Notes: a model not told the origin generated them from the letters alone. 64,000 nt of DNA from Kiritimatiellia bacterium (GCA_024405265.1 JAKSOZ010000004.1:5289-69288); one strand, 5' to 3'; counted from the stretch's first letter, positions 13,346 to 64,000 are shown. Program-made: numbers and translations.

Positions 13346-13363
13346 TTAGAGGAGACTTAAACA

Positions 13364-14665: not shown

Positions 14666-14668
14666 TAG

Positions 14669-17330: not shown

Positions 17331-17473
17331 TCGACTTCATTAAAAACAATTGGGGATTGAAGATACTGGCGCTATTACTCGCGTTAGTGGTCTATCATTC
17401 ACTTAAAACCAATTCCTCTTCCAGATATCAACATAATGACCGCACAATCTTCCAACCTAACCCCGGAGCATAA
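17327..17473 (+). CDS. 48-aa membrane peptide matching only the N-terminal anchor of CdaR/YbbR (mini-CdaR or gene remnant)
   Basis: Own translation from the ATGA overlap with the cdaA stop: MIDFIKNNWGLKILALLLALVVYHSLKTNSSSRYQHNDRTIFQPNPGA. Compare the B. subtilis CdaR N-terminus MDKFLNNRWAVKIIALLFALLLYVAV (recalled). No YbbR domains follow. Overlaps the ftsK start by 38 nt. Confidence 0.35.
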   Translation: MIDFIKNNWGLKILALLLALVVYHSLKTNSSSRYQHNDRTIFQPNPGA

Positions 17474-45938: not shown

Positions 45939-46478
45939 TCAGGCTAACTCGGTGAACTCGCTTAAAACAGGAAGCCCCATGATATTCTCGTAGGAGCCTT
46001 CGTATCGTTCGACGATAAGACCGCCCGATTCGTCGATGTCGTACGCGCCGGCGCGGTCGGTAGGCTTCACCTCCGCGACGTACTTTTCAATCAAATCCTC
46101 GGATAGCTCGCGGAACTTCACCTTCGACTCGACGACCTTCGTTTCGAGCGCTCCGCCTTTCTTGCACCAAGCTACTCCCGTGAAGACCGAGTGATAATTT
46201 CCGGAAAGCTCGCGCAAATATTCCTTCGCTTCCTCGAGAGTCTTCGGCTTACCGTAGATTCGATTATCGAACCAAACGATCGTGTCCGCGGCGATTATCG
46301 ACTCATCGGGGAATAGCGCGCGGCACGCCTTAAGCTTGCGCGCCGCGTTTACCGTGACCGTGCGCTTCGGAGCGCGAGGAATCGAGACTTCCTCCGCCTC
46401 GGTCGGCACGACCTTAAACGCAAATCCAAGACCCGTTAGGATCTTGGATCTGCGAGGAGATTTGGAAGCGAGGATCAC
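45939..46478 (-). CDS. maf: Maf-family nucleoside triphosphate pyrophosphatase
   Basis: ILASKSPRR start motif and 179 aa. GTG start in a GTGA overlap with the upstream gene. Confidence 0.9.
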   Translation of the reverse strand: MILASKSPRRSKILTGLGFAFKVVPTEAEEVSIPRAPKRTVTVNAARKLKACRALFPDESIIAADTIVWFDNRIYGKPKTLEEAKEYLRELSGNYHSVFTGVAWCKKGGALETKVVESKVKFRELSEDLIEKYVAEVKPTDRAGAYDIDESGGLIVERYEGSYENIMGLPVLSEFTELA

Positions 46479-48982
46479 TTCTTCAACGTCTTAAGCGTAA
46501 GTCCCGTCAAGTCCTTGCCCTTCTCAGGGAGGATCATCGAAGCGATGAGCGCGACGACGACGCAGACGACGAGGCCGATACCGCCCAAGAGGAACGGGTG
46601 GAACTTAAGCCCGAAGACGTCGCAGTGGAGAATCTCGCAGCTGAAGCAAACGAAGTAGTTCGCGACGAGACCCAAGACCGCCGCGAGGCCCTTGATGCGC
46701 GGGAGGAAGACGCCCATGAAGAAGAGTCCCGTTAAGCCCGCCGTGAGCATCGCGATATACTTGTTGAAGTTATCGAACAACGCCGACGACTCCATGCGCG
46801 AGAGCGCGAGCGCGGCGCAAATACCGAGAACACCGACGACATAAGTGCAAACCTGACCCGAGCGAATCTGCGCCTTACCCGAGATGGTCGGATTGAAGCG
46901 CTTGATGAAATCGGTGACGACCGCCGTCGAAGCGGACGAGAGGTTCGCCGACAAGGTCGAGATCGTCGCCGCGAAGACCGCCGCGATAACGAGACCCGCG
47001 AGCCACGGCGGCATTTCCGTCGCCATGAAGATCGGGAGGATCGAGTCGCCCTTAGGCATCGTCACGTCCATCGCCGACGGATTCGTGTGATAGAACGCGA
47101 AGAGCGCCATACCGATTCCGTAGAAGACGATCTGCGCGAAGACCGACATGCACCCGTTGAACCAGAGGGAGCGCTTCGTCGCGTTTTCGTCAGGCGTCGC
47201 GATATAGCGCTGGATGACGCACTGGTCGGAAGTGTAGCTCGAGAGGTTCGAGATAAGGCCCTGAACCGCGACGACCCAGAATACCGGCTGCGAGAAGAGG
47301 AGACGGAAGTCCCACATCGTGTTCTTGTCGTAGGAGGAGGCGATATTCCAGAACGTGGCGAGGTGTTCGCCGCTCGCGCCCGTCTTCGAAATGAGGAGGA
47401 CGAGTACCGAGACCGCGCCGCCCATAAGGACGATACCCTGAACGAAGTCGGACCAGATAACGGCCTCGAGACCGCCCAACGAGCAGTAGATCATCGTGAG
47501 AACGCCGCAAATGAGAATACACGCGTCGATCGAAACGCCGGTCACCGCGTTAAGCGCGATCGCCGGGAGCAAGGTCACGACCGCGACGCGGCAGACCATG
47601 AACACGATGAACGCCGCGGAGCCGAAGAGACGAACGCCGAGGTTGAAGCGCTTCTCGAGATATTCGTACGCCGAGGTGATACCGAGGCGGCAGAAGAACG
47701 GGAGGTAGTAGTAGATCGCGACCGGCGCCATGCCGATGATGAAGAACGCCATCACGAAGTATCTCCAGTCCTGGAGGTACGCCTGAGTCGGGATCGCGAT
47801 AAAGGTGATCGACGAGAGCATCGTCGCGAAGATCGACATACCCGCGACATACCACGGAATCTTACCGCCGCCGCGGAAGTAATCGTTTTCGTCTTTCTTC
47901 TTGAAGATGAAGAAGCAGGCCATCGCGACCATCAAGCATGCGTAAATCGCGACGACGGCCCAGGCGCTGACGCCGAACTTCTTGGTCTTGAGGAAGTGAG
48001 CGGAAGTGACGCGGTCGGTGCGAACGCGCGGCGCTTCTTCGCCGCCGACGATCATGAGCTGATATTGCTCGGGAGTCTTGCCGCGCTTGAGGCTGGCGGC
48101 CGCGCCGCAACGAGGCTTATCGTCCTTCGCGAGAGTGCCGTATTCGCACCACGCGTCCGTGACGCAGTTGTAGGCCATGACTTCGCGCTGCCAGTGAGCG
48201 CCACCGCCGCGAACCCAGTCCGAGTAGCCGTAACCGCCGACGAGAAGGATGTGCTGGTGGCCGGAAGGGAGAAACGCCGCGCCGATCGTGGTGTGAGCGG
48301 TGAGCGGGGAGAGCGTCTTCCATTCGCCGGGCGCGGTAAGCGAGTAGCGATAGCCGTCGAGGAGGACAGGAGCGCCGGGAGCGCCCTTCTCATAACCGCC
48401 GAAGACGACGAGATACTTTTCCTTCTGATCGCCGTTCTGAATCGCCGCGACCATCTGCGAACGCGTCGCGGGGCCGGGGAGATCGGGAAGCGCCGTCCAC
48501 TCGTTCGCTCCTTCGGCGAGCTTCCAGACGTGATTACCGCCGATCACGTAGATCGTGTTGCCGTCTGCGGCCGCCGCGCCCATCGAAATCGGCTCGGGGA
48601 GATCGGGAAGCGCCTCGGTCGCGACGATGTCGCTCGCTTCCATGTTCGAAGGAATCTGCGGGTTGAAGAGATACGCGTCCTTGAACGTCGTTTCTCCGTC
48701 GGTACCGCCCGCCGCGAAAATACCCTTCGGCGTTTCGCAGGTTACGCCTTCAGCGACGTTATGCTTCGTGGAGCCTACGCGCGACCACTTACCCTCAAGG
48801 TCGCGAACGAAGACGTCGTTCTTATAAACCTTCTGATCGTTCTCGAAGTTCGAACCGCCCGCGATCAAGAATTGTCCGTCGGGGAGTAAGCCTCCGAAGG
48901 GACGCGCGACTTTGGTCGGAGCCGTTTCCGGATCGTGCCACTGGATCGCGATCGCCAGCGCTAATAACAATATCGATTTCAT
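46475..48982 (-). CDS. fusion: NanM-like Kelch beta-propeller (sialate mutarotase) + sodium:solute symporter
   Basis: Residues 1-~330 carry a signal sequence and Kelch blades with repeated (T)ALPDLP(G/E)P and the NanM-like GGEEAPRVRTDRV. Compare E. coli NanM GEAKPGLRTDAV (recalled). The remaining ~500 aa form a polytopic SSS-type permease. Confidence 0.8.
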   Translation of the reverse strand: MKSILLLALAIAIQWHDPETAPTKVARPFGGLLPDGQFLIAGGSNFENDQKVYKNDVFVRDLEGKWSRVGSTKHNVAEGVTCETPKGIFAAGGTDGETTFKDAYLFNPQIPSNMEASDIVATEALPDLPEPISMGAAAADGNTIYVIGGNHVWKLAEGANEWTALPDLPGPATRSQMVAAIQNGDQKEKYLVVFGGYEKGAPGAPVLLDGYRYSLTAPGEWKTLSPLTAHTTIGAAFLPSGHQHILLVGGYGYSDWVRGGGAHWQREVMAYNCVTDAWCEYGTLAKDDKPRCGAAASLKRGKTPEQYQLMIVGGEEAPRVRTDRVTSAHFLKTKKFGVSAWAVVAIYACLMVAMACFFIFKKKDENDYFRGGGKIPWYVAGMSIFATMLSSITFIAIPTQAYLQDWRYFVMAFFIIGMAPVAIYYYLPFFCRLGITSAYEYLEKRFNLGVRLFGSAAFIVFMVCRVAVVTLLPAIALNAVTGVSIDACILICGVLTMIYCSLGGLEAVIWSDFVQGIVLMGGAVSVLVLLISKTGASGEHLATFWNIASSYDKNTMWDFRLLFSQPVFWVVAVQGLISNLSSYTSDQCVIQRYIATPDENATKRSLWFNGCMSVFAQIVFYGIGMALFAFYHTNPSAMDVTMPKGDSILPIFMATEMPPWLAGLVIAAVFAATISTLSANLSSASTAVVTDFIKRFNPTISGKAQIRSGQVCTYVVGVLGICAALALSRMESSALFDNFNKYIAMLTAGLTGLFFMGVFLPRIKGLAAVLGLVANYFVCFSCEILHCDVFGLKFHPFLLGGIGLVVCVVVALIASMILPEKGKDLTGLTLKTLKK

Positions 48983-50130
48983 TTCTTCATTCCTTTCTTT
49001 ATTTCAGCCATGATGTCAGCGGCGGGAACGACCGCGAAGTCGATTACCTGATAGCCGGCGCCTTCCCAAAGAACACCGATCGACTTGTCTTTAAGAATCG
49101 TGATATCGGAGTAAGCCGAGCCGCCTTCGCAGATCGTGATACCCTCGGTCCAAGTCTTGCCGTCATCGGTCGACACGCGCAAGGTCACGTTATTGCGGCC
49201 CGAGGACTTGCAGCCCGTATAAAGGAGGATCTTCTTTTCGTTATTGCCGAAGCGCATGATCTGCGCGTTGCAGCCGGGATCCATAAGATTGTTGTCGAAA
49301 TGACTTTCCCAAGTCTCTCCCTTATCCTTCGAGATATGAATCAAACGTCTGCAGCCTCCGCAGCGCGAATTGATCATCCAACTTCCGTCGGCGAGTTCGA
49401 CGATCTTGCACTCGTCGCCGCCGTTCGTCGGCTTACCGAAGCTCTTCCACGTCTTGCCGTGGTCGAGCGAGCCGAAGATCGCGTTGCCGCGCTTCCCGTT
49501 AGCGTGTACGAGAGTATGGAGGAGCGCGCCCGACTTCGTCTGAATACCGGAACCCGAGGAGATGAAGATGAAGCCTGAGTCGCCGCGCTTAGCGAAGAAC
49601 GGCCAGTCCTCAAACGCGATCTCTTTCGTGATATCGCGAGGCTTTGACCAAGTCTTTCCGTTGTCGGCCGATTCCTGAACGTAAAAGAGGTAAACGCCGT
49701 TACCTCCCTCGGTCGTGGTCCAGTCCCAAACGTTATAAAAAAGGAAAATCTTCTTCGCCTTCTTGTCGACGATAAAGCTCGGATCGGAGCCCGACCACTT
49801 GCTGCCGGCTTCCCAAGGCCAGTCCCAAGAGTTGACCGGCTCGGTCCACGTCTTACCGTTATCGCTTGAGCGACGAATCGTGATGTTGATCGGCTGGTGA
49901 ACGTTGAGGTCGCCGCCGTTATTGGTACGCGCGTCACACGCGGCAACGAGATCTCCGTTCGGCGCCGTGCACAAGGCGGGGATTCGATACGAGCGGATTC
50001 CGTTATCGCCGGCGCGCCAGAGCGTCTGCGGTTCGCTCATCGCGGCGAAAGCGTTAAGCGCCAAGAGCGCCGCGCCGAGAATTATCGTTTTCTTCATGGT
50101 ATATTCAAGTCCTTTCTTTTTTAAATTCAT
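48979..50130 (-). CDS. exo-alpha-sialidase (GH33)
   Basis: RIP motif (SYRIPAL) and five Asp-boxes (SSDNGKTW, SADNGKTW, SLDHGKTW, SKDKGETW, STDDGKTW). ATGA overlap with the upstream gene. An alternative start at M12 (50097) sits right before the signal peptide. Confidence 0.9.
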   Translation of the reverse strand: MNLKKKGLEYTMKKTIILGAALLALNAFAAMSEPQTLWRAGDNGIRSYRIPALCTAPNGDLVAACDARTNNGGDLNVHQPINITIRRSSDNGKTWTEPVNSWDWPWEAGSKWSGSDPSFIVDKKAKKIFLFYNVWDWTTTEGGNGVYLFYVQESADNGKTWSKPRDITKEIAFEDWPFFAKRGDSGFIFISSGSGIQTKSGALLHTLVHANGKRGNAIFGSLDHGKTWKSFGKPTNGGDECKIVELADGSWMINSRCGGCRRLIHISKDKGETWESHFDNNLMDPGCNAQIMRFGNNEKKILLYTGCKSSGRNNVTLRVSTDDGKTWTEGITICEGGSAYSDITILKDKSIGVLWEGAGYQVIDFAVVPAADIMAEIKKGMKK

Positions 50131-52208
50131 TTGAGTTCGACTGAAACGCGGAAGAAGTGATCGTTCGCTTTCGCCTTATGCCACGCGCCGTCCTCGAGCT
50201 TCTCCTTACCCTCGACGGTATACTCGCGACTCGCGCCCAAATCCGGCTCCCATGTGACGAGCGGCTCTCCGTCTTCGCCGAGCGCGATCTTCGCTTTGAG
50301 CTCCCTCGCGTCGTCTTTCTTGCCCGTGACGAGATAGCGTCTCCAAGCCTCTTCTCCTTCCTCGTACGCCGCGAGTTCTTCCTCGCTGAGCGGCAAAAAG
50401 CGAATATCGTCGAGATAAATGAGCGCATCGCCATTAAGCCACTTGCTCGTACCGGCGAGCGTCGTTCTCATGACGATGGTAATAGTCGTGGATTTATTAT
50501 CTTCGCCGAGAACCGCGCTGTACGTTCGCCAATTTTCGTCGGTCGTAAGCTCGTTCCCATTGCATGACGCCGAAAGCGAACCACGATCACGCTCGTCGAA
50601 GCTCATGCGATAGGCGAAACTGAAGATTCCCTTACCCTTGAACGAGCAAGTGAGCGAGACGGTGTTTTTATTGACTCTATTGATTCTCGCCGACGCGGAG
50701 GTAGCACCTTTCTCGGCGCTTTCGTACGTAGCGGTAAAGTCGCTGCCGCTGACGACGACGTTATCGGCGTCGACGGCTTCGTTGAGCTCATCCTTCGCCT
50801 TCTTTTTCCAAATCGCGTAGAACGTAACGACTTCGCCTTCTTCGCTCGCGAGATTCATCAGCGGCTCGGGAAGCGGTTCGGCGACTTGCTTATCGAGGCT
50901 CCAAGCTACGAAAGTATAATCGGCGTGATAGAAAGCGTTCATCGGGAGAGTAACGGCGCTATCGTATACCGCGGCGATATCGTCCATCGCTCCGATCGCT
51001 CGCGCTAAATTCGCATCGAAGCGAACGACATAATGAATTTTCGCCTTATATACCGCCGTAAGCGCGTGGTTCTTCGCGACCTTGACGAGATCGGTTTCGG
51101 CGATGAACTTACCCTCGTATTGCCAGCCGACGAAATCATGCTCTGCCGGCGGCGTGGGCGAAGGAAGCGCGCCGTACTCGGAATCGAAAGTTACGATCTT
51201 CTCACTTGAGTCAATCGTCCCTTCGCCGGCGTTAAGCGTCACTTTATAGCTTTTCGCCGACCAGTGCGCATATAGCGTTTGGTCTTCGCAAATCTCAAAC
51301 TCCTTGCCGTTTACGATCTGTTCATCTTCGTCATCTTCCGATGCTTGATCCATCCACCAACCCTTGAATTCGTACCCGGCGCGCGAAGGCGTAGCCGCCG
51401 GCATCGGATAAGCGTCGGTATATCTTACCTCGTACGGACCGTAGGCGTCGGGGCTACCTGAGAAGTTACGGTCGTAAGTGACATAGTACTTCTTCTTCTC
51501 CATGACCGCCTTAAGCTCATGACATTCGGCATTGTCGACGAGCGCGTCCGCCTTGAGAAGCGACTCCCCCTGCTTCCAACCGGTTAATTCGTACCCGAGC
51601 CTGACCGGAGCCGGGAACGAATCGAAGGGATAAGGCTCGTCGAATTTCACTTTCGTCTCTACGCTCTTTACTCCGGCCTCGAACTCGCCCGTTTCGGTTG
51701 TTAAGGTGATGGTGACGAAGTTGTTGGTGAAGACAGGAGTGAGCGTAAAATATTGGATAGAGCAATACCCATCGAACGTCGGCGGCCTGGGGTTCATGTA
51801 GTAATATTCTATAAAAGTGAGGTCTCCCTTATCCTCATTTTCTACGAGGTCGTAATTCCCGGGATTATCTTCCGTACTATCGAGATTGGAGTATCTCCCT
51901 CCGATCACCCACTTCTCGAATGAGTATCCGGCCTTGGCCTCAGCATGAAATGAGAAGCCGCAAAGAAAGTCTTCGATTGCTCCGTTTATGCCGGTAACGT
52001 CAGATCTTACAACCGTACCGCCCTTATGGTTTACGATATTGAAAATCTTGGCATCTGCCGACCAAATCGCGTAACGCTTGGAGACTTCGTCGTACCAGTT
52101 CTTCGCGCTATGAGCGTCGTGCTCGAAACCGAAAGCGCTTATGCTTACGGCAAATGCGCCGCACCATAGAATGATGCGGCGCACGAGGCTGGACGCGTTA
52201 AAACGCAT
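50127..52208 (-). CDS. secreted InlB B-repeat (Listeria-Bacteroides repeat) protein
   Basis: Signal peptide and at least five repeats with the G-Y/H-x-F-x-G-W signature (GYSFEKWV, GYELTGWK, GYEFKGWW, HDFVGWQ, YTFVAWS). A C-terminal beta-rich region ends in HFFRVSVELK. Confidence 0.7.
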   Translation of the reverse strand: MRFNASSLVRRIILWCGAFAVSISAFGFEHDAHSAKNWYDEVSKRYAIWSADAKIFNIVNHKGGTVVRSDVTGINGAIEDFLCGFSFHAEAKAGYSFEKWVIGGRYSNLDSTEDNPGNYDLVENEDKGDLTFIEYYYMNPRPPTFDGYCSIQYFTLTPVFTNNFVTITLTTETGEFEAGVKSVETKVKFDEPYPFDSFPAPVRLGYELTGWKQGESLLKADALVDNAECHELKAVMEKKKYYVTYDRNFSGSPDAYGPYEVRYTDAYPMPAATPSRAGYEFKGWWMDQASEDDEDEQIVNGKEFEICEDQTLYAHWSAKSYKVTLNAGEGTIDSSEKIVTFDSEYGALPSPTPPAEHDFVGWQYEGKFIAETDLVKVAKNHALTAVYKAKIHYVVRFDANLARAIGAMDDIAAVYDSAVTLPMNAFYHADYTFVAWSLDKQVAEPLPEPLMNLASEEGEVVTFYAIWKKKAKDELNEAVDADNVVVSGSDFTATYESAEKGATSASARINRVNKNTVSLTCSFKGKGIFSFAYRMSFDERDRGSLSASCNGNELTTDENWRTYSAVLGEDNKSTTITIVMRTTLAGTSKWLNGDALIYLDDIRFLPLSEEELAAYEEGEEAWRRYLVTGKKDDARELKAKIALGEDGEPLVTWEPDLGASREYTVEGKEKLEDGAWHKAKANDHFFRVSVELK

Positions 52209-52224
52209 TTATCCTATTTCTTCA

Positions 52225-55200
52225 TTACTCAGCGGAAGGCGCCGCGGTAATCTCTTCTTCCGAGCCTTCAATCGAGTCGTTCGTGCGAACTTCACGACCG
52301 CTCGGGGTGATGAGACGACCGGTGACGAAGATGAGGAGGTTGCGCTTGACCGTCTGTTCCGCGTGGCTGCGGAAGAGGCGTCCGATGAAGGGAAGGTCGC
52401 CGAGGAACGGAACCTTATCGTCCATCGCCTTACGCTGCTCGGTGATGAGACCGCCAAGAACGACCGTCGAGCCGGGAGAGATCGAGACCGAAGTTTCGAT
52501 CTTACGAACGTGGAAGAACGGCTGTTCCATCGGAGCGTCGTAGTAGGTGATGTTCTTATCGCCCGTCTGGGTAAGCCCATCGAGCGCGGCCTGAGCGCTA
52601 TCCATCGCGCTGGAAGCGAGGGTAGCCTTAACCGTGTTCGGAATGGCCGTACCGAGCGTATCGAAGATCGAGGAGAGGCCAGTGAAGATTTCGCCGAGAC
52701 CGGTGAAGCTTTCGAGCGAGTTCGCGTTGCCCGAGAACGGAATCTTCATACCGTAGTTCTTCCAGGTCGGTTCGTCGACGACTTCAGGGCTGAGCTCGAG
52801 GTCGATGAGGCCGCCGTTACCGTCGGAGTAGGTCGGAGTAACGCGGAGGATGACGCCGACTTCGCGGGTAAGGAAGTTCTCAGGCTCGACGATCGCGAGG
52901 ACCGCGCTCTGCGAGCTGGAGTTGCTGCTGCCGGAAGAGGAGCTGGACTGGAGCTGAACGTTATAGTCGGACGGATAGATGAATTCGGTGACGACCTTGA
53001 TGACGGCCTCAGTACCGGACTTGGTGACGACCTTCGGAGCCGAGAGGAGGTCCGTGTCGCTACGCTGCGAGAGCATGTGGAGGATCATCGAGAGATCGGC
53101 GTTACCGAGAAACGCGTTGACCTTCATGAACTGGTCGTTAGTCGAACGGCCTTCGCCCGAGATGTGGTTACCCGAGGTCGAGAGGTAGCGGCTGCCGTTA
53201 CCGTAGTCGGAAGTGCCACCCATCGCGTCGATACCGATGTTACGAGTATTGCCGCCCTTCTGGAGCTTCGTGGTGGTGGTCGTCGTCGAAGCGCCGGCGC
53301 CCTGATAGTAGTTCTGACCGGCGTTGCTGTTAAGACCGCCCGCGGAAGACTGAGTCGTCGTCTCGTACTGCGCGTGCTTGACGCCGAGCGCCTTGCCGAG
53401 CTTATTGCCGACGTCGAGCGAGTAGTTGGAGTTGAGGATCCACTCGAAACCGAGCGAGTTCAAATCTTCCTGACTGACTTCGACGAAGCGAGTTTCGATT
53501 TCGATGAGCTTGGCGACGCCGCCGAGTTCGGAGAGCGCCTGCTCCATAAGCGCGAGGTTTTCACGAGTGTTGCGGACGCGGAGTTTGCCGATCGACTTGA
53601 TGTGGTAAATCGACGAACCTTCAGGCCAATCGACGCCGAGCTGCGTGAACACGCGCTTCCAAACGTCTTCGTCGCTTTCTTCGTCGTCACCGCTCGAGGA
53701 CGAGGAGGAGCGGCTCGAGAAGCTGCTGGCGCCCTTCATGCTGGTGATATCTTCGTTAGCGGTCGAGACGCGCTCCTGGAGAGTATCCGGGACGTTGTAG
53801 TTACGCGTGACCATTTCGTCGATCGACATCGACTTCTCCATGACCATGATGATCGAACCACGGACGCGGAACTTATAGCCGACCTGATCGCAGACGAGCT
53901 TGAGAGCTTCATAGAAGGAGATGTCGCTCGCGGTGATAGTCGGGATGACGGGGACGCCGGGCTGGCCGGAGGGGCCTTCTTCGTCGTCGCTACCCGCGAA
54001 GCTGTCGGACTCTTCTTCTTCGACCGCCGCGACCGCGCGAAGCGCTTCGGGCGTTCTCAAGACGAAGTTGAAGCCGCGCTTTTCGATTGGAATCTCAGGA
54101 CTATCGTAGTCCTTCGAAGCCTGGCGGAAGAAGTCGACGGCGTCGATGATCGTAGCCGGCGGCTTGAACGAGATCGTGGGAAGGCGCATATTCTTCATGC
54201 GCTTTTCGATATCCTGCTCCATCGTGTGTTCAGGATCTTCGCCTACGACGGCCTTCGAGGTTTCGGCGGGAGCGAAATCGAGCTGCGAAGCGTTGGTCGC
54301 GTACATCGGACGCCAAACCTTCTCGACGTCGGCGATCATGCCGTCACGAGCGGCGTCGCGTTCCTGAGTGACGATCGCGGCTTTCTTCTTGATGATCGTA
54401 CGACGGAGGCGGAGCGCTTCCTGGTTGTAAGGATCGTTGACGATAACGAGCTCGCACTCTTCGAGAGCGTTGTCGATATCACGAACGGCGAGATACTGAC
54501 GAGCGCGCTTCAAATGCTTACGGATATTGGTACGCTCGTTCTTATAGTCCTCTTCGTTGCGGCGGTGGGTGATTTCCGAAACGTCAGGCTTCTTGAGCGA
54601 CTCGGCGTCGGTATGGAGCCACTTTTCGAGCGTCTTAGCGGCCTTCGGGTGACGAACCTTAACGGCTTCCTGCATCGTCTGCATGGCCTGCTCATAGCGA
54701 CCGATATCATAAGCTTCGAGAGCCGAGCGATAGAGGCCTTCGGCGATGCCGTGTTCGCAGATCTTCTTGAGGTCACGGTTGGTGGGACGATCACCGAGCC
54801 ACTTGAAAGCGAGCGAGTAATAACGAACGGCTTCGTTGTAATCCTTCTCCTTCATCGCGCGCTGCGCTTCCTTCATCATGCGCTTGGCCTGGAGTTCGAT
54901 CGATTCGATACGAACCTTTTCGGTCGCGCGGATGTTGGCGAGGAGTTCCGCGTCGGGACCCTTAACGACGGGCGCTTCAGCGGGCTTTTCATCGACTTCA
55001 GCGGCGAGCTGATCGAGAAGATTGATGACGCTATCGACTTCCGCGTCGGTCACTTCTTCCGCCGGCGTGGGAATCTCGGCGGCAGGCTCCTCGACCTTAG
55101 CGGGAGCAGGCTCTTCGGTAGCGGGAGCAACCTCTTCGGCAGCGGGTTCTTCAGTGGGCTCTTCGGTAGCTTCAGCCGGTTCCTCAGCGGCCTCTTCGGC

Positions 55201-55686
55201 TTCCGCGGCAGGCTCTTCGGCTTCCGCAGGCTCCTCGGCTTCCGCGGCAGGCTCCTCGGCCTCTTCACCTTCTTCAGCTTCGGCTTCGGCTTCAGGCTCA
55301 GCGGCTTCAGCAGGCTCCTCGTCAGCAGGCTCTTCTGCGGCTTCCTCAGCCTCTTCACCCTCATCTTCTTCGGCTTCGGCAGCAGGCTCTTCGGCTTCGG
55401 CAGTCGGCTCTTCGGCTTCAGCGGCAGGCTCTTCAGCCTCTTCGCCTTCAGCTTCTTCCTCTACGGCTTCGCCTTCAGCTTCTTCCTCTACGGCTTCATC
55501 AGCCGGAGTAGTTTCTTCCGCTTCGGAGACTTCCTCCGTAGCTTCACCTTCGAGATCCTTTAAAAGGTCATCGAGGTCGTCCTGGGCAAAAGCCCCGCTG
55601 GACATGGTCGTGAATACCACGGCCGCGCCGATAGCGACAAGTGATTTGATGTTCGTCATAAGTTTCCCACTTCCTTTTGTGAACAT
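52225..55686 (-). CDS. secretin (GspD/PilQ superfamily; Amuc_1098-like position) with an acidic repeat and a TPR-like N-region
   Basis: C-terminal secretin domain (VVLGGLITEQRKAMDDKVPFLGDLPFIGRLFRSHAEQTVKRNLLIFVTGRLI) and a signal peptide ending AFA-QDD. An E/A/P-rich region spans ~170 aa. A TPR-like segment reads KDYNEAVRYYSLAFKW...GRYEQAMQTMQEAV. Confidence 0.9.
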   Translation of the reverse strand: MFTKGSGKLMTNIKSLVAIGAAVVFTTMSSGAFAQDDLDDLLKDLEGEATEEVSEAEETTPADEAVEEEAEGEAVEEEAEGEEAEEPAAEAEEPTAEAEEPAAEAEEDEGEEAEEAAEEPADEEPAEAAEPEAEAEAEEGEEAEEPAAEAEEPAEAEEPAAEAEEAAEEPAEATEEPTEEPAAEEVAPATEEPAPAKVEEPAAEIPTPAEEVTDAEVDSVINLLDQLAAEVDEKPAEAPVVKGPDAELLANIRATEKVRIESIELQAKRMMKEAQRAMKEKDYNEAVRYYSLAFKWLGDRPTNRDLKKICEHGIAEGLYRSALEAYDIGRYEQAMQTMQEAVKVRHPKAAKTLEKWLHTDAESLKKPDVSEITHRRNEEDYKNERTNIRKHLKRARQYLAVRDIDNALEECELVIVNDPYNQEALRLRRTIIKKKAAIVTQERDAARDGMIADVEKVWRPMYATNASQLDFAPAETSKAVVGEDPEHTMEQDIEKRMKNMRLPTISFKPPATIIDAVDFFRQASKDYDSPEIPIEKRGFNFVLRTPEALRAVAAVEEEESDSFAGSDDEEGPSGQPGVPVIPTITASDISFYEALKLVCDQVGYKFRVRGSIIMVMEKSMSIDEMVTRNYNVPDTLQERVSTANEDITSMKGASSFSSRSSSSSSGDDEESDEDVWKRVFTQLGVDWPEGSSIYHIKSIGKLRVRNTRENLALMEQALSELGGVAKLIEIETRFVEVSQEDLNSLGFEWILNSNYSLDVGNKLGKALGVKHAQYETTTQSSAGGLNSNAGQNYYQGAGASTTTTTTKLQKGGNTRNIGIDAMGGTSDYGNGSRYLSTSGNHISGEGRSTNDQFMKVNAFLGNADLSMILHMLSQRSDTDLLSAPKVVTKSGTEAVIKVVTEFIYPSDYNVQLQSSSSSGSSNSSSQSAVLAIVEPENFLTREVGVILRVTPTYSDGNGGLIDLELSPEVVDEPTWKNYGMKIPFSGNANSLESFTGLGEIFTGLSSIFDTLGTAIPNTVKATLASSAMDSAQAALDGLTQTGDKNITYYDAPMEQPFFHVRKIETSVSISPGSTVVLGGLITEQRKAMDDKVPFLGDLPFIGRLFRSHAEQTVKRNLLIFVTGRLITPSGREVRTNDSIEGSEEEITAAPSAE
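55044..55560 (-). repeat. coding low-complexity region: E/A/P-rich tandem repeats in the secretin N-terminus
   Basis: Encodes ...EAVEEEAEGEAVEEEAEGEEAEEPAAEAEEPTAEAEEPAAEAEE... and similar units. The DNA shows reiterated 18-nt and 27-nt units. Confidence 0.85.
55443..55496. repeat. perfect 27-bp x 2 tandem duplication
   Basis: cgccttcagcttcttcctctacggctt at 55443-55469 is repeated exactly at 55470-55496 (encodes EAVEEEAEG twice). Confidence 0.95.
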
Positions 55687-55705
55687 TATACTCTATTTCT
55701 TTTTT

Positions 55706-56836
55706 TTATTCAAGTGCCGAAATTGTTGTTTTTCGTCCGCTCGCCGCGTCCTCAATCAACACCTCCGGCCCATTGGCTCCGGTTTTAATCGTTAAAACCT
55801 TATATTTTGCGCCGCCGGTGAGCTCGAACTCGGCTCCTTCCGCGACGTTGAACGTGCGATCGCCGCCGCGCGTATACGTGAGCGTCGCTTCGGTGTCGAC
55901 CGCCGCGCGCGCCGCTTTCTTGGACTTCGCGAGGGTAAGCGTCACTTCCTTCGAGTCGCGCTTGCGAACGACTACGACCTCTGACGCGTCGACGGTTTTG
56001 GTAAGGCCGGACTCTTCCGAGCCCTTGATCGCGACCTTCTTCGACTTCTGTTCGTAGCTCTTGAGCGTGAAGCCGGTCTCGCCGATTTCTTCGCCCTCGA
56101 TCGCGGTCAAGGTTATGCCCTTGCGACCGTAGTCGTCCTTAGCGTCGGCCAAGTAGAAGCTGCAGCGATAACCGCTCGGGACCTTCGTCGCGGCCGTGAA
56201 GATGAAGGGCATCTTCGTTTCGGTAAGCTGCGCGCCGACCTTAAGCGACTTGAGATAATCGGGGTGGCTCGCGGCATCGGCGGGATTCGTCTCGGCGAGG
56301 AACTCCTCGAGGTTGGTGAAGCCGTCGTTATCGAGATCGCCGTTAGCGTCGCTCGGATCGCTCGGGTTAAGACCGTAAGCCTTCTCCCACTTGTCGGGCA
56401 TACCGTCATCGTCGGTATCGCTCGTCTGCGCGGCGACCGCCGTAGGCTGCTTCGCGCCGCAGAACGGGCAAACTTCGCTCTTCTCGGGAATCGGCATTCC
56501 GCAGCTCTTGTCGGCGCCGGCTTCGCCCTGCACGCAAAAAACGCGGCTCGCGGGAGCGAGGAAGCTCGCTTCGGTTTCGCCGAGTTCACGAATCTGGCCG
56601 GGCTTACGAACGGCCTTCAAAGCCGCCTTGTATTCGGTGAGGTCGACCGCGTCGACGCCGGTCGCGATATGCTTCTTGTCGACTTCGCTTAAACGTTCAC
56701 GCGCGACTTCGCCCGCGTCGATCGAGAACTCGCTGAGCATGACCGCGATCGCGATCGCGAGAACCGCGAGCGAACCTGCGAGCGCGAGGAAGTGCCAATA
56801 GTCGAAAAAGAAATTGCTTTTCTTTAAGGCGCTCAT
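55706..56836 (-). CDS. membrane-anchored protein with zinc ribbon + thrombospondin-type-3-like acidic repeat (Amuc_1099-like position)
   Basis: The start is set at MSALKK, which forms an ATGA overlap with the upstream stop. TM helix WHFLALAGSLAVLAIAIAVML. Also CGMPIPEKSEVCPFCG and DTDDDGMPDKWEKAYGLNPSDPSDANGDLDNDGFTNLEEF. The C-terminal half is beta-rich. Confidence 0.6.
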   Translation of the reverse strand: MSALKKSNFFFDYWHFLALAGSLAVLAIAIAVMLSEFSIDAGEVARERLSEVDKKHIATGVDAVDLTEYKAALKAVRKPGQIRELGETEASFLAPASRVFCVQGEAGADKSCGMPIPEKSEVCPFCGAKQPTAVAAQTSDTDDDGMPDKWEKAYGLNPSDPSDANGDLDNDGFTNLEEFLAETNPADAASHPDYLKSLKVGAQLTETKMPFIFTAATKVPSGYRCSFYLADAKDDYGRKGITLTAIEGEEIGETGFTLKSYEQKSKKVAIKGSEESGLTKTVDASEVVVVRKRDSKEVTLTLAKSKKAARAAVDTEATLTYTRGGDRTFNVAEGAEFELTGGAKYKVLTIKTGANGPEVLIEDAASGRKTTISALE

Positions 56837-57837
56837 TCCGCCACCTCGTCTTTCTTTTGAACGGTCGTCTTGGTATTGAAATCGTAGGTCGCGACGAAGA
56901 GCGTGCACTTGAGTTCGCCGCCCTGCGAAGCGTCGTTCACGTAGCCCGTTCTGACTTCGCTTTCTTCGGAGGCTTCTTCCTCCGCCTGAGCCTTGCGACC
57001 GCGGCCGCGACCGGCCTTCTTCGCGTCTTCTTTCTTACCGCTCGCGAGCGCGGCGGAAATCTGATCGTCCTCGTGTTCGAACGAGAGATTCTCGGTCGTC
57101 GCGAAGCGCTGAGTCGCCGCGAGCTCGTTCAAGAACTTGATATGCGCGGCGGGACGAGCGCGGTAGACGAGCATATAACGCTCAACCGCGAAATCGCTCT
57201 TGGCCTTAGGCTCTTCCTTCTTGACGTTCTTCTTCGCGGAAGCGCCGCGAGAACTGCCGCGAGCGCCCTTCTTCGGCGCTTCTTCGACCTTCTCTTCGGT
57301 CTTACCGGTGAGAATCACGATATCGAGGATTTCCGTCGCGCCGTCCTTGGCGAGCGCTTCGGTGAAGAGCTTGATATCGGACCACTGACGCGAGAGCTCG
57401 ACGATCTTTTCCGTCGGCGGAAGCGAACCGCCCGCGAGGAGGTCGCCGAAGCCGAAGCCGAAGTCCGCCTTGACGAGCGGAGCGCCGTTCGCGCCCTGAA
57501 GCGCCTTTAGTCCCGCCGCGTCGTTCATCATGCGCTCCTTGAAGAGCGAGGGCGAAAGCGCCGAATCGAGTTCGAGATCGCCGAGCTGAACGAATTCCTT
57601 CGCTTCGTTATACCACGCCTGAAGTTCGGCGGTGTTCTGATTGATCGCCGCGACGCTGTCGTTGATCGGAGCGATCTTCTCGTTGTTGATGCGGCGGACT
57701 TTCTCAAGCGCCGCGTCGATCGATTCGACCTTTTCTTCCTGTTCGGAGTAAGTCGAAAAGCCCATGTAGGCGAGAACGAGCGTCGCCAAAACGGCGATAG
57801 CTCCCGACGCGATCATGATGATTTTGTTCTTGTTCAT
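56833..57837 (-). CDS. bitopic coiled-coil protein, PilO-like role (Amuc_1100-like position and architecture)
   Basis: One N-terminal TM (IIMIASGAIAVLATLVLAYMGF), a coiled-coil segment and Lys/Arg-rich linkers. ATGA overlaps on both sides. Similarity to Amuc_1100 is judged from architecture and synteny only. Confidence 0.55.
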   Translation of the reverse strand: MNKNKIIMIASGAIAVLATLVLAYMGFSTYSEQEEKVESIDAALEKVRRINNEKIAPINDSVAAINQNTAELQAWYNEAKEFVQLGDLELDSALSPSLFKERMMNDAAGLKALQGANGAPLVKADFGFGFGDLLAGGSLPPTEKIVELSRQWSDIKLFTEALAKDGATEILDIVILTGKTEEKVEEAPKKGARGSSRGASAKKNVKKEEPKAKSDFAVERYMLVYRARPAAHIKFLNELAATQRFATTENLSFEHEDDQISAALASGKKEDAKKAGRGRGRKAQAEEEASEESEVRTGYVNDASQGGELKCTLFVATYDFNTKTTVQKKDEVAE

Positions 57838-59480
57838 TTGAACATGTGCTCCAATACGAATTGCTTGACTTCGCCCTTAGGACCGATAACGGTCTCTTCC
57901 TTCTGCGAGATGCTCTCGGGCGGGATCTGATTCGCGCGAGCGAAACGATCACGGACGATTTCCGCCGCCGTGAGCGTCGTGCCGTTCTTCTCGGTGTTGA
58001 GCTTGACGGCGGCTTCAGCGCGATCCTTCCAAGCGCGAATCGTCGCGCGAATGCCGGTCTTCGATTCGTTCGGGACCATCGAGTGGACCCAGAAGTCGCT
58101 ACCGAGCGCGGTACGAACGGCGACCGTACGATCGACGCCTTCGCCGCGCTTGATCATCAGCGCCTTGAGTTCAGCGGCCTTCGCGGTCATCTCGGCTTCT
58201 GCGGCCTGAGCTTTCTTGATATGGCCTTCGACGAGGGTAAGCGCGCTCGCGCGAGTCTCGACTTCGCTGAGCTCGGCTTCGAGCGTATCTCCGCGACGCT
58301 GAACGCCGACGAAGAAGCAGATGCCCGCGGCGATAAGAATGAGCGAAGCGGCGATCACGACGGGGATGCGCGCTTTTTCCTTACGATCGGCGATGATCGC
58401 GGGCGGGAGGAGGTTGATGTTGTAGCGACCCGAAGCGGAAGCCTGAACGGCGAGACCGGCCGAAGCGGCGAGGAGCGCCGCGTTGCTTTCGAGCTCGCCC
58501 ATATCGATCGAGGGCGAGGTCTGGATACGCTCGAACGGATTCAAGTACTCGACTTCGATTCCGAGCGCGCTCGAGAAGAACGTATCGATCTGAGGCATGA
58601 GCGCGACGCCGCCGGTGATGTAGAGCTTCGTCGGCGTACCGCCGCCCTGCTGGCTACGATAGAAGTTGATCGAGCGATTGACTTCGGCGTTAAGACGCGT
58701 AAGGATCGATCTCGCGGCCTTCGCGACCGCGCCCGCCTGCTCGTCTTCGTCTTCTTCGACGCCGCCTAAAGAGACGTAGCCCTTCTGAAGCTTGAGCGCT
58801 TCCGCTTCGTCGAGCGTGCAACCGAAGACCTGCGAGATTTCCTTGGTGATCGAGTTACCGGCGACGGGAACGGAACGGTTATAAAACTTTTCGCCCTCGG
58901 TGATGATGAGGTTCGTCGTCTTCGCGCCGATATCGAGGATAACGACGCAGTCGTCGCTACCGCCGAGATTGTACGAAAGCGCGTTCGCGACCGCGAGCGG
59001 CGCGGCGGAAACGACCATCGGCGAGAAGCCGCAGCTCATGATCGCGCTCGTGATGGGTTCGAGCTGATCGAGCTTCGAGGCGACGATCATGACGGACTTG
59101 TCGCCCGTTTCCGTATCGCCCAAGATCTGACTGTCGCAGACCATCTCGTCGAGCGGGAAAGGAATGTTCTGTTCGATCTCGTAGCGGATCATCTGGTCGA
59201 ACTTTTCCTGACCGCCGGCGAACGGAATCGCCGCGAACTTCGGGAAGACCATCTGACCGGAGACCGAGAGCGCGACCTGACCTGGGCGAATGCCCTTTTC
59301 GCGAACGATCTCGAGAAGCGCGGGCGAGAGAATCGCCGAAGCGTTTCCGCTATCGAGCGGCGCGGCGAGTTTCGCGACGCCGTAATTAAGGAGCTTGAGC
59401 GAGTTCTTGCCGAGAACTTCGTACTCGGCTAAGGTTACGCTCTGAGCGCCGATATTAAGAGTTTGGATTTTCTTGCCCAT
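57834..59480 (-). CDS. PilM-like actin-fold protein fused to a PilN-like TM/coiled-coil module (Amuc_1101-like)
   Basis: FtsA/PilM-type motifs (VVILDIGAKTTNLII, LYITGGVALMPQI), then a TM helix (IPVVIAASLILIAAGICFFVGV), a coiled coil and a C-terminal domain. Confidence 0.8.
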   Translation of the reverse strand: MGKKIQTLNIGAQSVTLAEYEVLGKNSLKLLNYGVAKLAAPLDSGNASAILSPALLEIVREKGIRPGQVALSVSGQMVFPKFAAIPFAGGQEKFDQMIRYEIEQNIPFPLDEMVCDSQILGDTETGDKSVMIVASKLDQLEPITSAIMSCGFSPMVVSAAPLAVANALSYNLGGSDDCVVILDIGAKTTNLIITEGEKFYNRSVPVAGNSITKEISQVFGCTLDEAEALKLQKGYVSLGGVEEDEDEQAGAVAKAARSILTRLNAEVNRSINFYRSQQGGGTPTKLYITGGVALMPQIDTFFSSALGIEVEYLNPFERIQTSPSIDMGELESNAALLAASAGLAVQASASGRYNINLLPPAIIADRKEKARIPVVIAASLILIAAGICFFVGVQRRGDTLEAELSEVETRASALTLVEGHIKKAQAAEAEMTAKAAELKALMIKRGEGVDRTVAVRTALGSDFWVHSMVPNESKTGIRATIRAWKDRAEAAVKLNTEKNGTTLTAAEIVRDRFARANQIPPESISQKEETVIGPKGEVKQFVLEHMFK

Positions 59481-59483
59481 GAC

Positions 59484-60332
59484 TTACAGAACCTTCTTGA
59501 TCTGATCGTAGTCGCCGAACGAGCCGTTGAAGAACGGAGTTTCAGAAATGTCGAGAAGGCCCCAGCGCGACTGGATCGCGGGAACGCCGGTCTTATTGTC
59601 GATGAGGTCGTCATCGCCGACGAAATTTTCCCACCACTTACCCTTCTTCGGGTCTTTGAGCGTGGAGAGGCGGGAGAGTTCCTTTATGTTGTTGCATATA
59701 ACGGGGAGCGCGATATCTACGCCGTCGCCGATCGACTGGGTGTTCATCGCGAGCATCGTGCCGTCAGGCGTCGCGATAACGACCGAAAGAACGTCAGGCT
59801 GGCCATAGCGCTCGATGATATCGGCGGGGAGGCACGCGGTGACCTTATGATCGCCCTTCTTGATATTGATGAAGGTCTTGGTCAAGGTGTAGTAAGTGTA
59901 GCGCCCGAGCTTCGGGAGCGCCTTCATATCGGCGGAACCCTGCGCGAGCGTATTGAACTTATACTGCGAATCCTTCGCCTGATTCATACCGTCGCAGATG
60001 ATATGCCAAGTAACGACGATTTCGTCCATCCACTCGACGTAGGTCGTGTAGTTCATCGTGAAGTATCCCCACTTGTGGGACTTCTTGGCGAGTTCGCCGG
60101 GAGCGTCACGAAGCGCCTGCGTGCCTAAGGGAGTAACTCTTTCGAGCTGAGTCTTTTCGATGGCCTTGCCGACCTTTTCGTCCAAGGCCGCGTCGCCCGT
60201 CGTCGCAATCGCCGAAGTGACATCGCCGGTAGCGGCGCGCGAGCCCTTCTTCGCCTTCGTCTTAGGCGCCGCGACCACGATCGCGGACATCATCGCAAGC
60301 GTCATAACTATCATCAACTTCTTCATACTCAA
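59484..60332 (-). CDS. secreted protein of unknown function (Amuc_1102-like position); first gene of the cluster
   Basis: 282-aa ORF with a signal peptide (MKKLMIVMTLAMMSAIVVAAP) and the SD AAAGGAG. No recognisable motif. Confidence 0.55.
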   Translation of the reverse strand: MSMKKLMIVMTLAMMSAIVVAAPKTKAKKGSRAATGDVTSAIATTGDAALDEKVGKAIEKTQLERVTPLGTQALRDAPGELAKKSHKWGYFTMNYTTYVEWMDEIVVTWHIICDGMNQAKDSQYKFNTLAQGSADMKALPKLGRYTYYTLTKTFINIKKGDHKVTACLPADIIERYGQPDVLSVVIATPDGTMLAMNTQSIGDGVDIALPVICNNIKELSRLSTLKDPKKGKWWENFVGDDDLIDNKTGVPAIQSRWGLLDISETPFFNGSFGDYDQIKKVL

Positions 60333-60348
60333 GCTCCTTTCGATTTAA

Positions 60349-60377
60349 ATTATACTAAAATTCTTTGTCTATCTCAA
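60349..60377 (-). promoter_or_regulatory. near-consensus sigma-70 promoter of the pilus-like/secretin array (TTGAGA-N17-TATAAT)
   Basis: On the minus strand, TTGAGA is the reverse complement of 60372-60377 and TATAAT of 60349-60354, with a 17-nt spacer. Lies in the 62-nt gap after kpsF. Confidence 0.5.
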
Positions 60378-60394
60378 CCTTTAAGCTCAACCTC

Positions 60395-61378
60395 TCACAA
60401 GACTTTCATCTTCGGAAGATCTTGGATATCGACGAGGCCGACGACCTGACCTTCTTTGTTGCAGACGGGAAGATCGTCGATACGCTTATGCTCGAAGACC
60501 TTCAAAAGCTCCGCGGCGTAAACGCTATCGTAAACGAACGAGGGGCCCTTCGTCATGTGTTCGGAAATGGGAGAGTGAAGGAGGACTTCCGCGCCCTCCG
60601 AGATCTGACGGCGGAAGTCGCCGTCGGTGAAGATGCCGAGGAGTTTACCCGTCTCGTCGGCGATGACCGCCGAGCCGCTCTTCGCCTTCGTCATGGCCAT
60701 CAACGTTTCCATCACGCTCGCCGTAGGCGCGACCTTCGCGAGCTTTTCGCCCGTGCGCATGATATCGGTCACCTTCATGACGAGCGCGCGGCCGATAGCG
60801 CCCGCCGGGTGATTGAGCGCGTAAGAAGAAAGCTCGAACTTCATCGCGTCGATCATGACCATCGCGAGCGCGTCGCCCATCGCCATCGTCGCGGTCGTCG
60901 AATTGGTCGGCGCCATGCCGAACGGGCAGGCTTCCTTGCCGCAGGGAATGGCGAGATGAATATCGGAAAGTTTCGCGAGCGTCGAGTCGGGTTTTCCGGT
61001 CATCGAAATGACCTTAAGGCCGTGACGACGGATAGCGGGGATGAGCTTTAAGATTTCGTCGGATTCGCCCGAGAACGAGAGCGCGATAAGGACGTCACGC
61101 GGCGCGACCATACCGAGGTCGCCGTGCATCGCCTGCACGGGATTGAGGACGATCGAGCGCGTACCGGTCGACGCGAAGATCGCCGACATCTTCTCGGCGA
61201 TCGCGAGGTTCTTGCCGACGCCGGAGACGACGATAATGCCGTCGTTCTTGACACACTCGAGCATAAGCGCGATCGACTCGGTGAACGATTCGCCGAGCGA
61301 AGCTTTGACTTTCTTGAGGCCTTCGATTTCGATATCGAAAACTTCATTCGCGCGCTTAAGCTGTTCTTCCTTCGTCAT
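60395..61378 (-). CDS. kpsF: arabinose-5-phosphate isomerase (KpsF/GutQ family)
   Basis: SIS domain (IVVSGVGKNLAIAEKMSAIFASTG) plus tandem CBS domains. 327 aa. Confidence 0.9.
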   Translation of the reverse strand: MTKEEQLKRANEVFDIEIEGLKKVKASLGESFTESIALMLECVKNDGIIVVSGVGKNLAIAEKMSAIFASTGTRSIVLNPVQAMHGDLGMVAPRDVLIALSFSGESDEILKLIPAIRRHGLKVISMTGKPDSTLAKLSDIHLAIPCGKEACPFGMAPTNSTTATMAMGDALAMVMIDAMKFELSSYALNHPAGAIGRALVMKVTDIMRTGEKLAKVAPTASVMETLMAMTKAKSGSAVIADETGKLLGIFTDGDFRRQISEGAEVLLHSPISEHMTKGPSFVYDSVYAAELLKVFEHKRIDDLPVCNKEGQVVGLVDIQDLPKMKVL

Positions 61379-62481: not shown

Positions 62482-62509
62482 TTTATCACTTATCACTTAT
62501 CGCTTATCA
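62482..62509 (-). repeat. 4 x 7-nt tandem array TGATAAG-CGATAAG-TGATAAG-TGATAAA (sense strand), starting with the ackA stop codon
   Basis: Reverse complement of 62482-62509. It is 26/28 identical to 13318-13345. Confidence 0.9.
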
Positions 62510-63670: not shown

Positions 63671-64000
63671 TTACTTCTGAGTGACAACGACCTTGTAGAA
63701 CGCGCCGGTAGCCTCCACGTCGAGGACGAGGTCTTCGCCGCCGATTTCGACTTCTTCAACCTTCACGACGGTCCAATCGTTCTGAGCGAGGTTATCCTTC
63801 GCGAGAACCTGAACGATCGCCTTGGCCTTACCATTCGTCGCGTAGAGCTTGGTCGCGCCCGAAGCGGAAGCGGTTTCGACTTCAGAGCCGACCTTAAGGA
63901 CGACCTTGCCGTTTTCGATCGCGAAGCCGGTGATGACGACCGAGTCTTCCTTGATCTGCGGCTCGAGCGCGCTCATGACCGAGCCCTCGTCGACCGAGAG
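63671..64000 (-). CDS. C-terminal part of a larger protein (ORF open to the right edge); beta-rich domain ending FYKVVVTQK
   Basis: The ORF track starts it at Met 63976. The frame stays open through 64000 (LSVDEGSV before the Met), and no signal peptide follows that Met. Confidence 0.45.
   Translation of the reverse strand, partial: LSVDEGSVMSALEPQIKEDSVVITGFAIENGKVVLKVGSEVETASASGATKLYATNGKAKAIVQVLAKDNLAQNDWTVVKVEEVEIGGEDLVLDVEATGAFYKVVVTQK

Follow-up and report, generated by a model that had tools for sequence, protein, structure and literature searches.

A probable Kiritimatiellae orthologue of the Amuc_1098-1102 (MUL2) locus, with a sialic-acid gene trio that seems to have been moved in by one species

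What is a secretin gene doing in one tight array with an adhesin-like gene, a sialidase gene and a gene for a probable sialic-acid importer? The question is raised by a 64-kb stretch of DNA from a Kiritimatiellia bacterium (GCA_024405265.1, JAKSOZ010000004.1; hereafter the window, whose positions are the coordinates used throughout), in which nine minus-strand open reading frames (ORFs) were confirmed between 45939 and 60332. An earlier note on this DNA had read the array as a single transcription unit that starts from a promoter at 60377 and couples a pilus-like envelope machine to sialoglycan harvesting. We consider it probable that the locus is the Kiritimatiellae orthologue of the Amuc_1098-1102 (MUL2) locus of Akkermansia muciniphila, whose Amuc_1100 is a TLR2-active protein; that it is read as at least two units; that its motors are encoded remotely; and that the three genes at its end, for a GH33 sialidase, a fusion of a NanM domain to a sodium:solute symporter (NanM::SSS) and Maf, were moved in by one species.

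The five products at the upstream end of the array are, by sequence comparison, homologues of Amuc_1102, Amuc_1101, Amuc_1100, Amuc_1099 and Amuc_1098, in that order. These are the same five families in the same order as in the Akkermansia cluster described in PMC5332112 and PMC13174399, in which Amuc_1102 is MUL2A and Amuc_1101 is MUL2B PilM. The earlier note had taken this homology and order from the literature, and both were borne out by NCBIfam and Pfam matches, by hhalign and by profile matches to PDB entries. The genes of this module, and the predicted promoters that go with them, are the following.

60349-60377, minus strand: sigma-70-like promoter site, TTGAGA-17-TATAAT (11/12)
59484-60326, minus strand: Amuc_1102-family (MUL2A-like) protein, divergent, with a signal-peptide-like N-terminal segment (profile-profile link)
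57834-59480, minus strand: PilM-PilN fusion, Amuc_1101 / MUL2B-like (Amuc_1101_fam; TIGR01175)
56833-57837, minus strand: Amuc_1100-like protein in the PilO position, hydrophobic segment at the N-terminus (Amuc_1100_fam)
55706-56836, minus strand: Amuc_1099-family protein in the PilP position, hydrophobic segment at the N-terminus (Amuc_1099_fam, TSP3_bac, Zn_Ribbon_1)
55685-55713, minus strand: conserved secretin promoter, TTGAAT-17-TATAAT (10/12), overlapping the Amuc_1099-like stop codon
52225-55659, minus strand: large secretin, Amuc_1098-like (Amuc_1098_fam; Pfam Secretin)

Protein families were scanned with NCBIfam and Pfam, and orthologue profiles (A2, Amuc_1102-like; A3, Amuc_1100-like; A5, Amuc_1099-like) were compared with the PDB. 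The secretin has Amuc_1098_fam at the top of all secretin models (E 2.8e-124, residues 244-1134, 416 bits, cut-off 750), with the GspD, PilQ and MshL models at E 1e-28 to 1e-33, Pfam Secretin at 1.9e-32 and TIGR02515 at 9e-31, under its cut-off. Its N-terminal region is acidic and of low complexity, its secretin domain is split and there is a weak match to TPR; it has more than 1000 homologues, those named being from Kiritimatiellae. The PilM-PilN fusion matches Amuc_1101_fam over residues 3-506 (E 3.5e-115, 386 bits, equivalog cut-off 650), the TIGR01175 PilM model at 143.7 bits, above its cut-off of 133, and Pfam PilM_2 over residues 8-346 (E 8.6e-38); a profile of its C-terminal 205 aa matches Myxococcus xanthus PilN (3JC8) over about 120 residues (E 5.4e-6), which supports the reading as a fusion. 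The Amuc_1100-like protein matches Amuc_1100_fam (E 6.5e-11, 42 bits, cut-off 180), the sole PDB matches of its profile are the Amuc_1100 crystal structures 6LAD and 6KNY (E 4e-5), and its orthologue in one of the two closest relatives (L001) matches Pfam PF28028 Amuc_1100. The Amuc_1099-like protein reaches 89.1 bits against Amuc_1099_fam, above the curated cut-off of 50, and 31 orthologues share four invariant cysteines (zinc ribbon) and a DxDxD motif (TSP3 calcium-binding repeat). The first protein of the array has no direct Pfam or NCBIfam match itself; hhalign links it to A2, the family that Kiritimatiellae relatives encode in this position (probability 99.9%, E 1e-33, full length with two insertions), whose members match NCBIfam Amuc_1102_rel (E 7e-8) and Pfam PF28178 Amuc_1102. 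Profiles A2 and A5 found no informative PDB entry, and nothing useful came of single-sequence phmmer searches of the PDB with the three small module proteins.

The start codons needed some revision. The Amuc_1102-like gene most likely starts at ATG 60326, with AAAGGAG 7 nt before it, and not at TTG 60332, and the likeliest secretin start is ATG 55659 (MTNIKSL...), since the same ATGACGAAC start is found in almost all relatives. The gap between the Amuc_1099-like gene and the secretin gene is thus 46 nt, not the 19 nt of the earlier note, and contains a predicted promoter. With this correction the junctions along the array are, in order, 3 nt, ATGA, ATGA, 46 nt, 16 nt, ATGA, ATGA and GTGA.

The module sits in a setting that is shared widely. 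A scan of species-representative genomes found 236 with a secretin relative, and 80 of these loci were retrieved. We label related loci L001-L083 and further contigs L084, L085 and L088-L090; L084 and L085 are short contigs of the same species from other samples, and L004 (contig 23) and L088 (contig 52) belong to the sister genome GCA_045598585.1. Counts of neighbours are among the 83 related loci unless stated otherwise. All retrieved relatives with informative titles are metagenome-assembled genomes of gut or rumen Kiritimatiellae. In a synteny matrix built by tblastn, the order ackA-pta-kpsF-1102-1101-1100-1099-secretin was found in every related locus with enough flank for it to be read. 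Among 68 loci (species) informative about the gene directly after the secretin, coaE followed by rho occupies this place in 39, a Flg_new protein in 15 (with coaE next in seven) and something else in 14; in eight further loci a Flg_new protein comes right after rho. The window has neither coaE nor rho. The block conserved across about 70 related species hence reads giant surface protein, ackA, pta, kpsF, module, secretin, an optional Flg_new gene and coaE-rho, and Akkermansiaceae MUL2 is drawn with the secretion channel, dephospho-CoA kinase and rho as neighbours in an ISME J 2026 article (PMC13174399). These common coaE-rho neighbours imply that the synteny is old, and genome comparison shows the locus to belong to the core of gut and rumen Kiritimatiellae, with its synteny kept.

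The window's own flanks are as follows.

63671-64000, minus strand: C-terminus of a giant surface protein (GAFYKVVVTQK before the stop), truncated at the edge of the window
62507-63640, minus strand: ackA, acetate kinase (Pfam Acetate_kinase, E 3.7e-133), upstream flank, syntenic in nearly all related loci
61425-62462, minus strand: pta, phosphotransacetylase (Pfam PTA_PTB, E 6e-98), upstream flank, syntenic
60395-61378, minus strand: KpsF/GutQ-like SIS+CBS sugar-phosphate isomerase (Pfam SIS, CBS), directly upstream of the module
43350-45845, minus strand: gyrA (Pfam DNA_topoisoIV, DNA_gyraseA_C), downstream flank, behind a 93-nt AT-rich gap

The array is thereby embedded in a larger set of minus-strand genes, from ackA-pta-kpsF to gyrA, so that its co-directionality alone is unremarkable. 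In most relatives kpsF ends 10-25 nt before the Amuc_1102-like gene. This gap often holds short direct repeats that vary in sequence from species to species (L002, L014, L017, L027, L049, L071): the window has GGTTGAG twice (60378-60394) and L002 has GTCTTAG, and L014, L017 and L027 have arrays of the TCGAATGG type.

Sequence conservation is very uneven along the block. Protein identity to the two closest relatives, L001 and L004, is 95-97% for AckA, Pta and KpsF, 71-72% for the secretin, 67-68% for the PilM-PilN fusion, 53-55% for the Amuc_1099-like, 44-46% for the Amuc_1100-like and 33-34% for the Amuc_1102-like protein. Comparing L001 with L004, the module evolves several times faster than kpsF. 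We considered replacement of the whole module by recombination and rejected it as unnecessary, because this faster rate roughly accounts for the drop in identity; the Amuc_1102-like protein is the one module protein more divergent than the module rate predicts. Fast divergence despite kept synteny is also described for the Akkermansia locus (PMC13174399).

Downstream of the secretin lie the genes that make the locus unusual.

50127-52208, minus strand: Flg_new / InlB B-repeat (Listeria-Bacteroides repeat) surface protein (Pfam Flg_new, E 5e-20; TIGR02543)
51033-52128, minus strand: strain-variable part of the Flg_new gene (comparison with L084)
48979-50130, minus strand: GH33-type exo-alpha-sialidase with a signal-peptide-like N-terminus (Pfam BNR_2, BNR_3; NCBIfam neuraminidase)
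46475-48982, minus strand: NanM-like mutarotase::sodium:solute symporter fusion (Pfam NANM, SSF; TIGR00813 above cut-off)
45939-46478, minus strand: maf, nucleotide pyrophosphatase (TIGR00172 above cut-off)

The first of these genes has a history of its own. The Flg_new proteins that follow the secretin in the 15 species range from 700 to more than 3300 aa, and the gene is, from its distribution across genomes, an accessory gene at a recurrent insertion site. Against L084 the window is 97-98% identical on either side of a non-alignable 1.3-kb segment within the Flg_new gene (L084 190-1492). The first 25 aa of the two proteins are nearly identical and the last 310 or so about 95% identical, with only about 32% identity and a different number of repeats between them (aa ~26-320, or ~26-390 in L084; 693 versus 762 aa in total). 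This looks like cassette-type strain variation in the N-terminal and central part of a surface protein.

The window Flg_new protein ends in HFFRVSVELK, and in 41 of 54 loci a large ORF with the ending [FY][FY][KR]VxV comes just before ackA. An orthologue of the giant protein (4103-5098 aa, with TSP3 and LamG) lies upstream of ackA in L001 (directly) and in L002 (with two small genes between). The tail is present in 50 of the 1097 ORFs of the sequences compared, none of them a housekeeping gene; it lies outside all Pfam and NCBIfam families and may act as a sorting signal. Tail-bearing candidates stand on either side of the conserved block in nearly all gut Kiritimatiellae, as the TSP3/LamG giant upstream of ackA and as Flg_new proteins after the secretin or rho, and one can imagine that very large adhesin-like surface proteins with this tail are exported or displayed through the secretin module. 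We hold this to be an unlikely, if interesting, possibility. The earlier note had proposed an export route for the adhesin-like protein and the sialidase together; its adhesin half finds some comparative support in the 15 of 68 loci with a Flg_new gene and the eight more after rho, and its sialidase half does not. The recurrent link to adhesin-like proteins is, in our opinion, a more interesting lead than the coupling to sialic acid.

Could the whole array nonetheless be one nine-gene operon read from 60377, with the secretin machine exporting or displaying both the Flg_new protein and the sialidase and thereby coupling to sialoglycan harvesting? This we find quite improbable. The genes overlap or nearly abut and no convincing terminator separates them, which speaks for it: in the window, terminator-like hairpins are no more frequent than in shuffled sequences (18 versus 24.3 +/- 4.7), and the matches on the minus strand of the array are weak, lie within coding sequence and do not convince. 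The recurrence of the Flg_new gene beside the secretin also speaks for it, as does the importance of MUL2 for mucin acquisition or attachment, reported from Akkermansia transposon mutants in PMC13174399 and bioRxiv 10.64898/2025.12.30.696933. The tight junctions and missing terminator that the earlier note described hold up, but one of the gaps contains a promoter that it had missed.

That promoter weighs heavily against a single unit. We compared 130 nt around the Amuc_1099-like stop codon in 71 related loci and found CTTGAAY-N16/17-TATAAT in 69, versus 0-9 of about 68 loci at each of the other junctions. The -10 element is an exact TATAAT in 54 loci, with a median of about 30 nt to the ATG and AAGGAG in between. 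While the -35 element overlaps the conserved codons of the ...LE-stop end, the -10 element and its spacing are kept in otherwise variable non-coding sequence, and this, together with the contrast to the other junctions, argues strongly, on comparative grounds, for a separate secretin promoter. The site at 60349-60377 from which the earlier note had the array transcribed is present (11/12), yet just 3 of 67 related loci have a comparable one, with neither L001 nor L004 among them, so this predicted site is specific to the lineage of the window. After the secretin, promoters are rare (3 of 70 loci), which makes it probable that secretin and coaE are co-transcribed in most species. Since the secretin runs straight into coaE-rho in most species (39 of 68), tight junctions with unrelated genes are the norm here and no sign of shared function.

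The predicted units are therefore the 60377 promoter with four genes, and the 55713 promoter with secretin, Flg_new, GH33, NanM::SSS and maf; gyrA would stand apart, with promoter-like sites at 45898-45863 in the gap before it. On this prediction the secretin and the sialic-acid genes may plausibly share a transcript.

The distribution of the trio also argues against a functional coupling. GH33, NanM::SSS and maf were found within 10 kb of the module in none of the 83 related loci, from which gyrA is likewise absent. In the sister genome, the module is on contig 23 and GH33-NanM::SSS-maf on contig 52, with the same overlapping junctions, 80% nucleotide identity to window positions 45954-50028, a location between RecA-like genes and a different neighbour upstream of GH33. 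The linkage recurs solely in the same-species contigs L084 and L085, where the secretin end, Flg_new, GH33 and NanM::SSS are 98% identical at the nucleotide level to the window (one sialidase copy is 100% identical). The linkage is thus real within this species, and its persistence in other samples is a point in favour of the single operon. In other relatives GH33-NanM::SSS lies beside scpAB or, in L090, beside a DHDPS-family (NanA-like) gene and a GlcNAc 2-epimerase gene, and in further ones the sialidase is alone in unrelated contexts. The protein upstream of GH33 in L089 was checked as a possible Flg_new protein and is not one. Nor does the sialidase have the C-terminal tail common to the neighbouring large surface proteins. 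From the empty neighbourhoods of the related loci, the separate contig in the sister and the unrelated contexts elsewhere, we conclude that the trio is, on comparative grounds, a unit of its own, brought behind the Flg_new gene by a rearrangement in this species only, and no conserved part of the machine. The claimed coupling of the machine to sialoglycan harvesting is not supported, and nothing indicates that the trio depends on the machine mechanistically.

The trio itself resembles known nan clusters, in which a sialidase, NanM and a SiaT-type SSS transporter occur together, in that GH33, the NanM domain and SSS stand side by side. It differs from them in that NanM is fused to the transporter, a fusion widespread in the clade, and in that no gene of the nanA, nanK or nanE/AGE type (DHDPS, ROK or epimerase match) was found among the window ORFs scanned. 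The GH33 sialidase has more than 2000 homologues, those named being from Kiritimatiellae or Lentisphaerae. NanM::SSS has 1636; among the 120 matches listed, all carry both domains, are 73-87% identical apart from a 100% self-match, and are usually encoded beside a GH33 sialidase. By its domains the fusion protein is a probable sialic-acid importer; the copy in the window is 100% identical to a protein of NCBI assembly GCA_024500545.1, which is annotated as a Kiritimatiellae bacterium. The window also encodes a GH89 alpha-N-acetylglucosaminidase (37940-40525) and a GH20-like hexosaminidase (27490-28938). With host-glycan hydrolases this dense, chance adjacency to any given locus comes easily, which further weakens the case for a sialidase-coupled operon.

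The opposite extreme, an adjacency without consequence in which GH33-NanM::SSS-maf is still controlled separately, by a promoter within GH33 or within the 3' end of the Flg_new gene, is more doubtful still. The independence of the trio in other genomes is consistent with it, as is a weak promoter-like site at 50108-50081 (9/12). But both candidate GH33 start codons come before this site, and read-through is favoured by the missing terminator and by the ATGA in which the Flg_new stop and the GH33 start overlap.

What of the motor? The earlier note was right that the 64 kb hold no pilin, prepilin peptidase, PilB/GspE ATPase or PilC/GspF platform gene. Among its candidate ORFs scanned with Pfam, of which four had no family match at all (a few short ORFs were left out), there was no T2SSE, T2SSF, pilin or peptidase A24 match, and a six-frame motif scan found neither a prepilin motif nor a GspE-type Walker A box. 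The other ORFs are housekeeping and glycan genes (GH89 NAGLU, GH20, leuS, ftsK, ftsH, V-type ATPase subunits). Where we disagree is in taking this to set the locus apart from a standard type IV pilus or type II secretion locus. Classic pilMNOPQ operons, such as that of Pseudomonas aeruginosa, are also unlinked to pilABCD, and PilM is the component that engages the motor and the platform in known type IVa pilus systems. The missing genes are normal both for such operons and for the Amuc_1098-1102 type: the accounts of the Akkermansia cluster in PMC13174399 and PMC5332112 list no pilin, ATPase or platform gene inside it, as in the window, and in Akkermansia species pilins and pseudopilins of type IV and type II are expressed from genes outside the cluster (bioRxiv 10.64898/2025.12.30.696933). 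A single related locus of the 83, L039 (UBA3761), has motor genes: three T2SSE-family ATPases, PilB-like with MshEN, PilT-like and a second PilB-like, right after the secretin (12968-17535). Such motors therefore exist in the clade. A self-sufficient conduit that is passive or driven by the proton-motive force, for instance for uptake of mucin glycans into the periplasm without PilB, PilC or pilin, would fit the lack of such genes in the window and within 10 kb in 82 of the 83 loci, and an Akkermansia locus tied to mucin acquisition and not motility (PMC13174399 and the bioRxiv study), but a PilM-type protein, the remote genes of classic pilMNOPQ operons and of Akkermansia, and the PilB-PilT-PilB set of L039 all point the other way and leave it the least likely of these readings.

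We thus return to the Kiritimatiellae orthologue of MUL2 with remote motors. Its genes form a pilMNOPQ-style set: an Amuc_1102-like secreted protein first, then the PilM-PilN fusion, the Amuc_1100-like protein in the PilO position, the Amuc_1099-like protein in the PilP position and a very large secretin. The fusion and the two proteins after it would form an inner-membrane alignment platform under the secretin. Through this platform the secretin in the outer membrane would be connected to a cytoplasmic motor of PilB/PilT type and to pilin-like subunits, both encoded at other places in the genome; the product would be a pilus-like or T2SS-like structure. The four upstream genes would be read from the 60377 promoter or by read-through from kpsF, and the secretin from the promoter at 55713-55685. 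The trio, once moved behind the secretin-Flg_new pair in this species, is probably co-transcribed with them. Expression of sialidase and importer from the secretin promoter would be coherent with a role in mucin acquisition or attachment, yet it would be a feature of one species.

Compared with the type IVa PilMNOPQ system of P. aeruginosa and M. xanthus, the set is collinear as M-N-(O)-(P)-Q, with PilM, a PilN-like tail and a PilQ-type secretin in last place, and in P. aeruginosa, too, the operon is apart from the pilin and ATPase genes. In the window, by contrast, PilM and PilN are fused, an Amuc_1102-like secreted protein comes first, and the O and P positions are taken by Amuc_1100-like and Amuc_1099-like proteins, with no PilP similarity detected. 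A PilO/PilN-like fold of Amuc_1100 is stated in bioRxiv 10.64898/2025.12.30.696933. As to Akkermansia MUL2, Kiritimatiellae relatives share even the dephospho-CoA kinase and rho genes after the secretin. The window differs in belonging to another clade; in an Amuc_1102-like protein so divergent that profile-profile comparison alone detects it; in the size of the secretin (1144 aa versus 805 positions in the family model); and in the Flg_new gene and sialic-acid trio added after it.

Several observations weigh against the orthologue reading. The Amuc_1101, Amuc_1100 and Amuc_1098 models score under their NCBIfam equivalog cut-offs, Amuc_1099_fam alone passes and the Amuc_1102-like protein has no match, so the proteins are distant homologues and not equivalogs. 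With hhalign, the Amuc_1100-like profile A3 and the profile of the PilN-like tail (A4) align in the membrane anchor only (probability 77%), and the Amuc_1099-like profile finds no PilP or GspC in the PDB, just weak matches to calcium-binding motifs. The pilin, PilB, PilC and prepilin peptidase of this genome are postulated, the scan covering 64 kb, and the promoters are predicted. Finally, the contigs of L001 and L004, the two closest relatives, end soon after the Flg_new gene.

Elsewhere in the window, Rfam and tRNA scans of its entire length found nothing. The left end is low in GC (0.40 in 1-2000), with a GmrSD-type restriction endonuclease gene beside a sigma-54 activator gene (503-2224 and 2241-3680); the former may be an acquired defence gene.

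We found no earlier report of a locus of the Amuc_1098-1102 kind in Kiritimatiellae, none of the papers searched naming both this group and Amuc_1100, and the survey in PMC13174399 is one of Verrucomicrobiota orders only. The occurrence of the locus in this clade widens the comparative base for working out what the MUL2-type machine does. The linkage of the trio to it in one species is a warning against reading the adjacency of a sialidase or an importer as mechanism. Further leads are the strain-variable half of the Flg_new protein and a module that evolves fast compared with its flanks. And if the unlikely link to tailed surface proteins were true, the Amuc_1098-1102-type system would be an adhesin secretion system with a new sorting signal, rather than (only) a pilus.

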